This document shows positions 39,001 through 45,000 of a DNA stretch of 64,000 nt, one piece after another. The stretch lies in assembly GCF_048403405.1 (NCBI RefSeq), contig NZ_CP183129.1; one strand, given 5' to 3'. A program made the position numbers. The DNA is from Escherichia coli (GTDB lineage Bacteria > Pseudomonadota > Gammaproteobacteria > Enterobacterales > Enterobacteriaceae). Positions within the stretch are counted from its first letter, which is position 1. Every line of letters begins with the position of its first letter.

Positions 39001-42000
39001 TCCCAAAGTTGATGTGGCGATTATCAGCACCACTTACATTCAGCAGACCGGGCTTTCTCCGGTGCACGACAGCGTATTTATTGAAGATAAAAATTCGCCG
39101 TATGTGAATATTCTGGTGGCACGGGAAGATAATAAGAATGCAGAAAACGTGAAGGAATTTCTGCAATCTTATCAATCACCCGAAGTCGCTAAAGCGGCAG
39201 AAACCATTTTTAACGGTGGTGCGGTGCCTGGCTGGTAATTCTCACTCATCCCGCGCCGGACGATTTATTTTTCTGGCGCGGCGACGGGAATCCATTGAAA
39301 TCAAAATCACCGATGACAGAATCAGCAGTGTGCCCAGCCAGTCCGGTAATGTGAACGTGATCCCCAGCAACAGCAAAGAGAGCAGCGCGCTACTTAATGG
39401 TTCTGCACAGCTCAAAATGCTGGCTTTTGGACCGCCAATTAATTGTGCTCCTTTCAGGTACAGACTAAATGTCAGGGACGTACCAATGACCACCAAATAA
39501 AAAAACGCCAGAATCAAACTGCCGTTAACGACAAAGTTTGTTCCTTGTCTGGCATAAAAAGGCAACAGAATCAGACCGCCGATCAGCATACTCCAGCCGA
39601 CGACAGGCAACGTGCCATAGCGGGCAATCAGCGTTGAGGGATAGGTGGTATAGAATGCAGCAGCAAATGCCGAGGCAATGCCCCAGAATAACGCGGCCGG
39701 AGAGATCGATAATGACGTCGGATTACCGTGTGTCACCAATAAAAAAGTCCCGATCAGCGATGTCAAAATAGCGCAGAAAACCAGAATGCCCGGGCGAGAT
39801 TTACGCACCAGTGAGAACCAGGCGACGATAATCGTCGGTGAGAGGAATTGCAGCACCGTTGCCGTGGCAGCATTCGATTTTTCAATGGTTAGCAAAAAAG
39901 TGAGCTGTACGGTTAGCGCGCCAACCACGGAAAAAATCAGCAGACTAATGGCATCTTTGTGATTGTTAATAATAGAAAAGATTTTATCGCCATGAACAAA
40001 TGACAGCGTCAGCAGAATCAAACCGGCGAATATCAAACGCGTCATAGTCAAAAACTGCGACGACATCTGGCTTTGCTCCATGATGTATTGCGCGCAGACC
40101 CCTGAACTTCCCCACAACACGGCGGCAATCAGAACGTTCAGCATCCCCTTTCTGGTGGAACCCATTTTTCCCTCTGCATACTGTTTTGTCGTTTATGTAT
40201 GCAGGCATGATAGCAAAAATGGCGAGGATGGCTCTGTTTGCGCCACGCCGATTTTTCTTAGCTCAGACTGGTGAGCTAAATATCTTTAATAAACAGCAGG
40301 CAAATCATCGCAATACCCAGCATTCCTATCGCCAGCCAGAACAACGCATGGTAGCTCCAGATTTCAACCATAATTCCGTCAACAGAGCCGGCGATAATCC
40401 AGCCGACACGTGAGGTATTTGCATATAACGTTGTCGCAGAGCCTATTTTTTCAGGCATCAGATCCTGAAAATAAAGCATGCCGATACCACAGAGAATACC
40501 AAGGAAAATGGCATTTAGAATTTGCAATTCCAGCTCAACTGCCGGAGTCGTCGCCATGAGTACGCTGGCGTAAAAACACATTCCACTCACGATAGCAATG
40601 AGCATTAATTGCCGCTTGCCAATACGTTTCATGTAATAGCCTGCGATTAACATCATCGGAATTTCCAGACCGGCAGCGATACCAATCATTTCTCCAGCCA
40701 GTTTATCGGTTAGATGCAGTTCATCAATAATAAATAGCGGCATATTTATCATGTAGAGATTATTCGCCGCCCACATCATTGAACAGACCACAAAAAGTAG
40801 CCGTGTATCCCGCTTTCTATGGATGGAGGGTAAAATTTCTACGGGTTGGGTAACGACAGGAATATTTCTTTGTATTGATGGCAAAAACAACCAGACGATC
40901 AGCCCGCAAACAACAAATGCGATGGCAGCGGTGAGATACATCACTTTAAAACTAAATCCCATTGCCAGTTCATAAGCGAGTGGTGGCCCGATAACCCAGG
41001 CAAGCGAGATCTGAGCACGTAAAAATGTACTGAACATGACCGTCTCGCGGCCTGTTCTGTCAGCGTGTTCACGGGCGAGGGCGAACATTTGCGGGTTTGC
41101 GGTGGAAGCAAAACTACTCAGAAGTACGCCCGTTGAGAGGAGAATGAAGTAGTTGCGATTCCACGCAAAAAGCGTGCAGGCCAGCACTCCAAATAAGCAA
41201 CATAGCAGGATCAGTAACTTACGGTCGCCTTGTTTATCGGAGTGCCTTGCCAGAAATTGACTGACCAGAATTCCCATAATAGCGCTACCGGTGAAGAAAA
41301 AACCTACCATTATAGGACGGGCTTTCAGTTCATCTGCGAGGAATATACTTAGGGTGGGAGTCTGGAGAGCGCCCGCAATACCAGTCAGAAAGGCGACAAG
41401 TAAAAATGCCGCGGCAGTGAGATCAAGTATTTTTGATGGAGTGGTAGCCGTTTTTTGCATTCTTCTGAATCACCGGGCGACAAAATATAACTGAGTTACA
41501 AATAAGTACCAGTCGAATGAGTATTGTATTAAGAATTTTTGAGTATCGCTGATACAACCAGAAAGCAATGCTAGCGCAATATTATAGGGCCAGCAATTGA
41601 GATTATTAGCAAAAGCATGTTAAGAATTAATTACCGAATTTATATATTAATTATAGTAAGGCAATGAGCTATTTTTGATAGTAAAAATAAAACAAGTTGA
41701 TTTGATATGTTAAATGAACAAATTAATCTTGATGGCAGTCTGATTATTGGTGAGGTTTATAGGTCAGTTTTTTTCGCCAGCGGTTAAAGAAATAGAATCG
41801 TCGTATAAAAAAGGGTGTTCTGGGGCGTGTAAAACAACATCTTCACCTTAATGGCGATACAGTTGGCTGAGAGTCAGCAGGGGGGCAAATCACCTGCAAA
41901 TAAACACGGCGCATGCTGGCGCGAATATCGCGGATGCGTTCGAGGACAGAAGAACCGACAGGCGGATTCTTCAGTCGCTCATCGTCCATCATAAAACCTT

Positions 42001-45000
42001 TGATCAGGTATTCCTGAAGCCGATTGAATATTGAGCAGTAGAAAATCTCTGGATTGACAGTATTACAAGGGGTTGGAGAATGTCAGAAGAGGCATTTTGG
42101 CGGAAGATCACAGGAGTCGAACCTGCCCGGGACCGCTGGCGGCCCCAACTGGATTTGAAGTCCAGCCGCCTCACCGGAGACGACGATCTTCCGCGCCTCG
42201 ATTGCTACATGGAGGCGGGGCGCATTATAGCTACTTCCTTGAGTTTCTACATCCCCCAGATCAGTTTTTTCCGCCTAATACACGCAGCGTATTATCACGA
42301 AAGCATTATAATTCATATAAAACCCATATTTTACAATGATATATGAGCAGAATTAACGCTACCACGATCACATAAAACAAGAATCATAAATTAATAACCA
42401 GATATCGGAATATTCGCTCTCACAGGGATGGTTTACAAAATGCGTTATCGGTCTCAGCACCCCTATAGCATCAAGGAAAAGCAGATGAAGAGTGAAGTGT
42501 TGTCCGTTAAAGAGAAAATTGGTTATGGCATGGGAGACGCCGCCAGCCACATTATTTTCGATAACGTAATGTTATATATGATGTTCTTTTATACCGATAT
42601 TTTTGGCATACCTGCCGGATTTGTCGGAACCATGTTTTTGGTCGCTCGTGCACTGGATGCGATTTCCGATCCTTGCATGGGGTTGTTGGCCGATCGAACG
42701 CGCTCTCGCTGGGGTAAATTTCGTCCGTGGGTACTGTTTGGCGCACTGCCATTTGGGATCGTCTGTGTACTGGCCTATAGCACGCCAGATCTCAGTATGA
42801 ACGGAAAAATGATTTATGCAGCAATTACTTACACCCTACTTACCTTACTTTATACCGTCGTCAATATCCCTTACTGCGCATTGGGTGGTGTAATCACCAA
42901 TGACCCGACTCAGCGTATCTCGCTGCAATCCTGGCGTTTTGTGCTGGCGACCGCGGGAGGCATGCTCTCTACTGTTCTGATGATGCCACTGGTTAATTTA
43001 ATTGGTGGTGATAATAAACCACTTGGTTTCCAGGGCGGTATCGCGGTCCTTTCCGTGGTGGCATTCATGATGCTGGCATTTTGTTTCTTCACCACTAAAG
43101 AACGCGTTGAAGCACCACCTACAACGACGTCTATGCGGGAAGATTTACGTGATATCTGGCAAAACGACCAGTGGCGGATTGTCGGTTTACTAACCATTTT
43201 CAATATCCTGGCGGTGTGCGTCCGCGGTGGAGCGATGATGTATTACGTCACATGGATTTTGGGTTCGCCGGAAGTGTTTGTCGCTTTTCTCACCACTTAT
43301 TGCGTAGGTAACCTGATTGGTTCCGCACTGGCAAAACCGCTGACCGACTGGAAATGTAAAGTCACTATCTTCTGGTGGACGAACGCCCTGCTGGCAGTGA
43401 TTAGCCTCGCGATGTTCTTTGTTCCTATGCAGGCCAGCATCACCATGTTTGTCTTCATCTTCGTGATTGGTGTGTTGCATCAACTGGTGACACCTATCCA
43501 GTGGGTAATGATGTCCGATACCGTCGACTACGGCGAGTGGTGCAATGGTAAACGCCTGACCGGGATCAGTTTTGCTGGCACGCTGTTTGTGCTCAAGCTG
43601 GGATTGGCCTTCGGCGGCGCTCTTATCGGCTGGATGCTGGCTTATGGCGGATATGATGCGGCAGAAAAAGCGCAGAACAGCGCCACGATTAGCATCATTA
43701 TCGCGCTATTCACGATTGTTCCGGCGATCTGTTATTTGCTGAGCGCGATTATCGCTAAACGCTACTACTCACTCACGACGCACAATCTGAAAACCGTTAT
43801 GGAACAGCTGGCTCAGGGCAAACGCCGTTGCCAGCAACAATTCACCTCTCAAGAAGTGCAGAACTAAGGAACGGCAATGAAAATTAGCGATGGAAACTGG
43901 TTGATTCAACCTGGCCTCAATTTGATTCACCCGCTTCAGGTGTTCGAGGTTGAACAGCAGGGTAATGAAATGGTGGTCTATGCTGCCCCCCGTGATGTAC
44001 GTGAACGTACCTGGCAGCTTGACACGCCTTTATTTACGCTGCGCTTTTTCTCCCCACAGGAAGGTATTGTCGGTGTACGGATTGAGCATTTTCAGGGGGC
44101 GCTGAATAACGGTCCTCATTACCCGCTCAATATTTTGCAGGACGTGAAGGTCACAATCGAAAACACAGAACGTTACGCTGAGTTTAAAAGTGGCAACTTA
44201 AGCGCGCGTGTCAGCAAAGGTGAGTTCTGGTCACTGGATTTTCTGCGTAACGGCGAACGTATTACCGGTAGTCAGGTGAAAAATAATGGCTACGTGCAGG
44301 ACACGAATAATCAACGAAATTATATGTTTGAGCGGCTGGATCTTGGCGTTGGCGAAACAGTTTACGGTCTGGGAGAGCGCTTTACTGCCCTGGTGCGCAA
44401 TGGCCAGACGGTAGAGACCTGGAACCGGGACGGCGGCACAAGTACTGAACAGGCGTATAAAAATATCCCGTGCTATATGACTAACCGTGGTTATGGGGTA
44501 CTGGTCAATCATCCTCAATGCGTCTCTTTTGAAGTGGGATCGGAGAAAGTCTCCAAAGTGCAGTTCAGCGTTGAGAGTGAATATCTCGAATACTTTGTTA
44601 TCGACGGCCCGACGCCGAAAGCGGTACTTGATCGTTATACCCGTTTTACTGGTCGTCCGGCGCTGCCGCCCGCGTGGTCCTTCGGCCTGTGGCTAACCAC
44701 TTCATTTACCACCAACTACGACGAAGCGACGGTAAACAGCTTTATCGATGGTATGGCGGAACGCAATCTGCCACTGCATGTTTTCCACTTTGACTGTTTC
44801 TGGATGAAAGCCTTCCAGTGGTGCGATTTTGAGTGGGACCCGCTGACTTTCCCGGACCCGGAAGGGATGATCCGCCGCCTGAAAGCGAAAGGGCTAAAAA
44901 TCTGCGTCTGGATTAACCCCTATATCGGGCAAAAATCCCCTGTCTTTAAAGAGTTACAAGAGAAAGGCTATTTACTCAAACGCCCGGACGGTTCGTTATG

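Follow-up and report, generated by a model that had tools for sequence, protein, structure and literature searches.

In a 64,000-nt stretch of an Escherichia coli genome (contig NZ_CP183129.1, RefSeq assembly GCF_048403405.1; hereafter the window) we analyzed the spacer that separates selC, the gene of the selenocysteine tRNA (tRNA-Sec), from setC, which encodes a sugar efflux transporter. With a probability that we put at about 0.9, this spacer is the ordinary selC-setC intergenic region of E. coli, lying next to an empty selC attachment site. The original prediction for this DNA had considered the short AT-rich 3′ flank of selC as a possible scar of an earlier integration and excision, the island itself being displaced to the interval between nepI and yicS. 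The features on which it was built are all there: an intact selC, an AT-rich flank of about 640 bp up to setC, one copy of an 18-mer motif (hereafter the box) and a short minus-strand open reading frame (ORF), which covers 41843..41992 (49 codons) and had been placed about 40 bp away, at 41.88-42.03 kb. A relic of an earlier integration does exist, a piece of the gene rhuM, but it appears ancient, is species-wide and found in K-12, and nothing in it is peculiar to this strain.

The spacer is orthologous to that of K-12 MG1655 (637 vs 636 bp). Precisely, the two are collinear from end to end at about 97% identity, and they differ by 18 substitutions and one 1-bp indel, with zero inserted or deleted blocks. 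In the K-12 record NZ_CP010442.1 the order is likewise setC, rhuM fragment (pseudogene SH06_RS26560) and selC, with the same copy of the box; the rhuM frame, which is open in this strain, is interrupted by an in-frame stop in K-12. The arrangement is hence already known, as the rhuM pseudogene of K-12 is annotated by NCBI. The G+C content of the spacer, low as a whole (Table 1), is 33% in 41461-41860 and 53% in the rhuM part. Two signs of foreign composition can be recognized, the rhuM fragment and the 33% G+C of 41461-41860, and both are present in K-12 too. The possibility that the spacer would prove identical to K-12 and free of foreign sequence was thus borne out in one half: the spacer is of the K-12 type, yet it contains a decayed fragment of the RhuM family.

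Our population sample consisted of 5426 complete E. coli genomes, of which 5424 matched some part of the region. The spacer was present jointly with the 5′ end of setC in 3600 of them, and the unbroken spacer-selC junction, as in the window, in 2491. The spacer is common to K-12 and thousands of genomes at 97-98% identity; hence it is not peculiar to this strain and is silent on any recent integration or excision. The nearest record was that of strain TUM14771 (NZ_CP128875.1), which is 100% identical over the 1001-bp stretch around the spacer and 99.97% identical over positions 1-21623 of the window.

The selC gene was the sole tRNA gene detected by ARAGORN (anticodon TCA, UCA in RNA). Its match to Rfam family RF01852 scored 83.8 bits (gathering score 47), and it is full-length, intact and identical to the selC of K-12 in 95 of 95 bases. 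No RNA family other than tRNA-Sec was found by Rfam in 41000-42700 (E ≤ 1). We then considered the 3′ end of selC, direct repeats of which are known to border islands at this site, 21 bp long in enteroaggregative E. coli (EAEC) 042 (PMC7058095) and 24 bp long in islands of Shiga toxin-producing E. coli (PMC6174562). The last 16, 20, 24 and 30 nt of selC were searched in the whole window with at most 25% mismatch, and no second copy was found; besides selC itself, the search returned only chance 16-mers with 4 mismatches. Hence the att-like direct repeats that a scar had been expected to leave occur neither in the spacer nor in the rest of the window. Moreover, the spacer contains no integrase gene or remnant, the rhuM fragment being the sole item in our ORF calls and in the K-12 and TUM14771 annotation. 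Since the only copy of the selC 3′ end is the one within selC itself, the selC site is, judged from sequence, an unoccupied attachment site (attB).

The appearance of an occupied site can be read in about 1100 of the genomes. In these, the match to the spacer extends to window position 42118-42127, that is 21-30 nt into selC, and then stops, and an island separates the spacer from the true tRNA gene. The selC repeat of these strains abuts exactly the right end of the spacer. In strain A1_136 the order is spacer, TGGCGGAAGATCACAGGAGTCGAA (the final 24 nt of selC) and DNA of a CP4-type island, and in strain 2017.17.01CC a tyrosine recombinase gene stands at the occupied selC site. On the other hand, matches in B2-type, O157 and A26-type genomes begin at window position 42075 (query position 78), so that the variable region starts from 42074 and a short flank directly 3′ of selC is kept. 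In E. coli the default is an "empty" selC followed by a short AT-rich flank, and no new integration or excision event is required.

The short ORF belongs to the rhuM relic. From its ATG it spans 49 amino acids (aa) within a 79-codon open frame, and it is homologous to the Pfam family PF13310 (Virulence_RhuM; E=1.8e-12; 47.6 bits, cutoff 33.7), over positions 50-98 of the 252 of the profile. By tblastn it can be aligned with the RhuM of strain A26, a protein of 345 aa, over residues 121-185 of the latter, with 66% aa identity and gaps of 8 and 3 residues; at the nucleotide level there are two blocks, of 74 nt at 95% and of 56 nt at 86%, with a 24-nt deletion between them at 41946/41947. About 65 of the 345 codons are therefore left, with internal deletions. 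The NCBI Prokaryotic Genome Annotation Pipeline calls an incomplete rhuM pseudogene at the same spot in K-12, TUM14771 and five further strains. In seven diverse strains the frame is broken differently according to lineage, by a stop in K-12 and OkiPb01692 and by a frameshift in A1_136 and N1131, and a 1-bp deletion at 41880 occurs in five of the seven. The fragment has neither the full-length domain nor the conserved frame of a functional RhuM gene, and on this comparison the short ORF is a rhuM pseudogene, apparently in neutral decay, and not a gene.

Of the whole spacer, only the rhuM core has relatives beyond E. coli, and these are the rhuM genes found in Klebsiella, Salmonella, Proteus and Enterobacter (68-85% identity); in a distant blastn search against plasmids and phages, the AT-rich part had no relatives outside E. 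coli. Within the window, no exact spacer k-mer of at least 14 nt recurs, and with mismatches only the 18-mer family does. Full-length matches of the spacer to "plasmid" and "Campylobacter phage" records were rejected as a hint to its origin, since they derive from the E. coli chromosome or from contamination. Several entries of 4.8-4.9 Mb that PLSDB lists as "plasmids" are chromosomes of E. coli (among them NZ_OL790696.1 and NZ_CP141089.1), and the "Campylobacter phage" records MG065686.1 and MG065691.1 contain the E. coli selC-setC spacer at 97.5% identity, probably by contamination or misassembly.

For the origin of the relic, its position offers a clue. In Salmonella Typhimurium, rhuM is a gene of the third Salmonella pathogenicity island, SPI-3, which is inserted at tRNA-selC (PMC3680342), so that an old selC island is a plausible source of the rhuM remains next to selC.

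The box was described by the pattern ATGAGC[G/T]WWTTTTGATA[G/T] and searched as ATGAGCGATTTTTGATAG with at most 3 mismatches. The window has five copies, where 0.07 would be expected by shuffling. The similarity among the copies ends within about 20 nt and their flanks are unalike. Four of them are oriented in the same way as the gene downstream, these genes being eilA and eicA of the eip locus between nepI and yicS, and two orphan ORFs (Table 1, with distances counted between the final base of the box and the initial base of the start codon). When one genome per species was scanned for the exact pattern, the matches listed were mostly single chance hits in unrelated genomes; E. albertii NBRC 107761 had among them five separate loci (L006:200, L007:9366, L008:8448, L009:6006 and L010:994). 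In E. albertii an orphan ORF with 30-33% G+C starts 34-202 nt downstream of each box, and two of these ORFs encode pentapeptide-repeat proteins; the interval between the box and the -10-like hexamer that follows it is 17-21 nt. Nine of the ten copies examined in the window and in E. albertii precede a gene in the same orientation, and the exception is the copy in the spacer, downstream of which there is no ORF or Rfam RNA and only a poor -10-like sequence at the usual distance. We found no paper describing this box. By analogy we infer that it is a candidate promoter box of the regulon of the second type III secretion system of E. coli (ETT2) and of the eip locus, equivalent to the MxiE box of Shigella. 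An identity with the HilA box was also considered and dropped in favour of the comparison with boxes of the MxiE/InvF type, for which the consensus could be verified.

The spacer copy could, in principle, be a working site for an activator of the MxiE/InvF type belonging to the ETT2/eip system (such as EivF with a SicA-like chaperone) or for EilA, its effect being a transcript towards selC or a relief of H-NS silencing in the AT-rich region upstream of setC. We consider this improbable, although it is the likeliest of the alternatives. In fact, the copy is the canonical T-variant, the same that precedes the ORFs at L007 and L010 of E. albertii, it is present and invariant in all seven diverse spacers, K-12 included, the other copies stand upstream of eilA, of eicA-eip and of low-G+C orphan genes in the same direction, and the positions shared with the MxiE box, given below, include the critical ones. 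However, it is directed away from setC, besides having nothing to transcribe downstream and no good -10 sequence, and K-12 is without eilA and has a degraded ETT2 (PMC9241512). The invariance is uninformative, since conservation extends over all 250 bp beside setC and is not specific to the box. The spacer box is then most likely an orphan, and probably a second fossil of the same old island as rhuM. We propose only tentatively, as a guess less likely to be right than wrong, the wider view that it is an ETT2/eip box that was orphaned, is kept in K-12 and marks a lost effector gene, once the neighbor of rhuM in an old selC island, and that such boxes flag the ETT2 effectors of E. coli and E. 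albertii; these effectors were still unidentified according to a 2024 review (PMC11068852). If experiments confirm its role, the box would be a practical handle for listing ETT2/eip-regulated genes, and it is the one point worth following here, as a separate question.

The density of variable sites divides the spacer in two. In the seven strains there were 6 variable sites in 41461-41710 (250 bp) and about 40 in 41711-42097 (387 bp), hence they are about 4-fold denser in the rhuM half than in the half on the side of setC. Upstream of setC, the AT-rich region is apparently constrained, and we presume that it holds the setC promoter and 5′ leader. A terminator scan gave results at chance level.

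Putting these elements together, the spacer, as the ordinary intergenic region beside an empty site, has three layers. The first is the unoccupied attB, made of the 24-nt 3′ end of selC and the 23 bp of conserved flank. The second holds an internal fragment, about 155 bp long, of a RhuM-family gene of the kind that sits beside selC in some E. coli and belongs to SPI-3 in Salmonella; deletions have removed both gene ends, and the fragment, presumably not made into protein, drifts neutrally. To this layer also belongs the orphan box, a candidate promoter element that elsewhere lies ahead of genes linked to type III secretion. The third layer, about 250 bp by setC, AT-rich and conserved, is presumed to contain the promoter and leader of that gene. 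The history that we infer is that deletions wore down an ancestral rhuM-bearing selC island prior to the divergence of the E. coli lineages with this spacer, and that the spacer copy of the box is a fossil of that island. The K-12-type spacer is itself a small graveyard of old foreign DNA, with a rhuM fragment and an orphan box.

Some observations weigh against this reading. About one third of the complete genomes are without this spacer and setC. Strain A26 (L004 10330-12581) has, in order, selC, the 345-aa rhuM, a degenerate repeat, 30 nt long (L004 11256-11285), of the 3′ end of selC and flank, a gene for a 165-aa hypothetical protein and yicL, and it has no setC. Taken together, these two facts mean that the K-12-type arrangement, instead of being ancestral, could represent one of the alleles of a variable region, and the comparison suggests that setC and its upstream region may themselves be a replaceable module. 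The fragment is 77-95% identical to the rhuM of A26, so it is not derived from that allele. The age of the relic is read from spacers within E. coli. Finally, a promoter consensus scan was at chance level (4 found vs 3.3 expected), and we claim no specific setC promoter. With a setC module absent from about one third of the complete genomes, the "backbone" beside tRNA hot spots is not to be presumed ancestral.

A less probable account than a working box is that of a recent scar, in which an island like selC-A or like the locus of enterocyte effacement was excised from selC in the recent ancestry of this strain, leaving the AT-rich 640 bp, and the type III secretion island was relocated by 4.5 kb. 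It is true that selC is a documented hot spot, that the approximately 1100 genomes mentioned above carry an island between selC and the same spacer, and that EAEC 042 carries both selC-A and selC-B (PMC7058095). Against this account stands, first of all, the near identity of the spacer in K-12 and thousands of other genomes. Integrase-mediated, site-specific excision regenerates attB and leaves no scar, hence the sequence cannot report a recent event of this type: a past occupancy would be invisible in it, and no partial att copy occurs in the window.

The supposed relocation fares no better. The island between nepI and yicS is the published eip locus, or "selC-B", located between yicM (nepI) and nlpA, beyond the backbone genes setC, yicL and nlpA (PMC7058095, PMC11068852). 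It takes the place of 51 bp that lie in K-12 between the stop codons of two convergent genes, nepI and yicS, and its right edge is 4.2 kb from the selC 3′ end. Its products are IatC (EaeX/Air), EilA, an IpaD/SipD-like protein, a hypothetical protein, a YopB/SseC-like protein, a small hypothetical protein and a SycD/LcrH-like chaperone. Neither an integrase, in the annotation, nor a copy of the selC end, in the search of the window, was found in it. The junctions are exactly those with nepI and yicS, and the right-hand one, with yicS, was found as here in 738 of the 5426 genomes. Hence the claim of a displaced island was not sustained: backbone genes lie between the two sites, and the eip island is, by its sequence and position, an independent insertion and not a relocated selC island.

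Two further observations concern this island. Its gene iatC (eaeX/air, about 24340-28450) contains a long array of repeats of about 291 bp, which is 583 bp (two units) longer in the window than in the otherwise near-identical TUM14771; variation of the same kind in the number of iatC repeats is known from the literature. The yicS allele beside the island (37919-38100) is only about 90% identical to that of strains without the island (536, O157:H7 Sakai and the majority of the others), whereas 37919-50969 as a whole is about 97% identical to K-12, and from this difference the island may have spread together with its flank by homologous recombination.

The least credible alternative, that the 49-codon ORF is a functional small protein domesticated from a piece of RhuM, has in its favour the frame of 79 codons with ATG that is open in this strain, and is made very unlikely by the lineage-specific stops, frameshifts and deletion of that frame, by the 4-fold denser variable sites compared with the part on the side of setC, and by the fact that only 49 positions, 50-98, of a 252-position domain are left.

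Table 1. Position and strand of the features considered in the window
Feature	Position	Strand	Remarks
selC (tRNA-Sec)	42098..42192	-	
selC 3′ end, 24 nt	42098..42121	-	attB core duplicated by integrating islands; TGGCGGAAGATCACAGGAGTCGAA on plus strand
Conserved 23-bp flank directly 3′ of selC	42075..42097		kept in strains with quite different downstream DNA
selC-setC spacer	41461..42097		637 bp; 38.6% G+C vs 49.2% in the whole window
RhuM-family gene fragment, decayed	41865..42020	-	Pfam PF13310; contains most of ORF 41843..41992
Box, spacer copy	41664..41681	+	ATGAGCTATTTTTGATAG; points to selC
AT-rich conserved region upstream of setC	41461..41710	-	27-35% G+C
setC, sugar efflux transporter of the major facilitator superfamily	40276..41460	-	left spacer boundary; 394-aa ORF; Pfam MFS_1, E=2.8e-41
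eip locus ("selC-B"): iatC/eaeX, eilA, eipD/C/B, eicA	20723..37918		17.2 kb; between nepI and yicS
Box upstream of eilA	32425-32442	-	about 70 nt from box end to start codon
Box upstream of eicA (first eip operon gene)	37676-37693	-	about 60 nt to start
Box upstream of orphan ORF 6449..7756	6230-6247	+	201 nt to start
Box upstream of orphan ORF 7972..9474	7839-7856	+	115 nt to start

The setC gene is annotated as such in both K-12 and TUM14771. The two orphan ORFs of Table 1, of 435 aa (6449..7756) and 500 aa (7972..9474), lie in an islet of 36% G+C at 6197-9575, between ilvN and uhpA, which we take to be adjacent in K-12. They are paralogues with 26% identity, each preceded by a box, and neither had a Pfam or PDB match; we consider them as candidate type III secretion effectors. 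The annotation of TUM14771 gives only a 160-aa protein for the first of them. Elsewhere in the window there are an insertion of 842 bp with respect to K-12 (18607-19448, between yicN and nepI), which encodes a toxin of the RelE/ParE family and a helix-turn-helix protein, presumably the antitoxin, and an IS200C transposase gene at about 3316-3774, between ivbL and tisB.

With respect to known systems, the eip island (eicA, eipBCD, eilA, eaeX/iatC) occupies in the window the same site as in EAEC 042 and in sequence type 69 (ST69). According to the literature, most ST69 isolates are without selC-A and have an unoccupied selC, as in the window (PMC7058095, PMC11068852); EAEC 042, unlike the window, has a phage-like island between selC and the 21-bp repeat of its 3′ end. 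The rhuM fragment is of the same family (PF13310) as the rhuM of Salmonella SPI-3 and that of E. coli A26, and it has the same position and orientation, just 3′ of selC. The difference is that in A26 rhuM is intact and is followed by the degenerate selC-end repeat, with setC absent, whereas the window has a fragment and setC.

For the box, the term of comparison is the Shigella MxiE box, with its 17-bp consensus GTATCGTTTTTTTANAG. The 18-mer has 11 of the 16 specified positions in common with it, including G6 and T10, mutation of which abolishes MxiE-box activity (PMC9769918); it hence has 5 mismatches, and the search made in that work allowed 4 substitutions. The genes icaR and icaT, which carry MxiE boxes, did not respond to activation by EivF with YgeG (PMC9241512). 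The two boxes differ also in their company, since the 18-mer goes with the eip locus and E. albertii and the MxiE box with the Shigella plasmid pINV. Like the MxiE boxes, the 18-mer is short and T-rich, is located upstream of AT-rich, horizontally acquired orphan genes and is followed by a -10-like hexamer 17-21 nt on. The likeness extends to their fate: copies of the 18-mer persist in strains without the activator, just as the MxiE-box genes icaR/yjgL, icaT/yfdF and yccE persist as fossils in K-12 (PMC9241512, PMC9769918).

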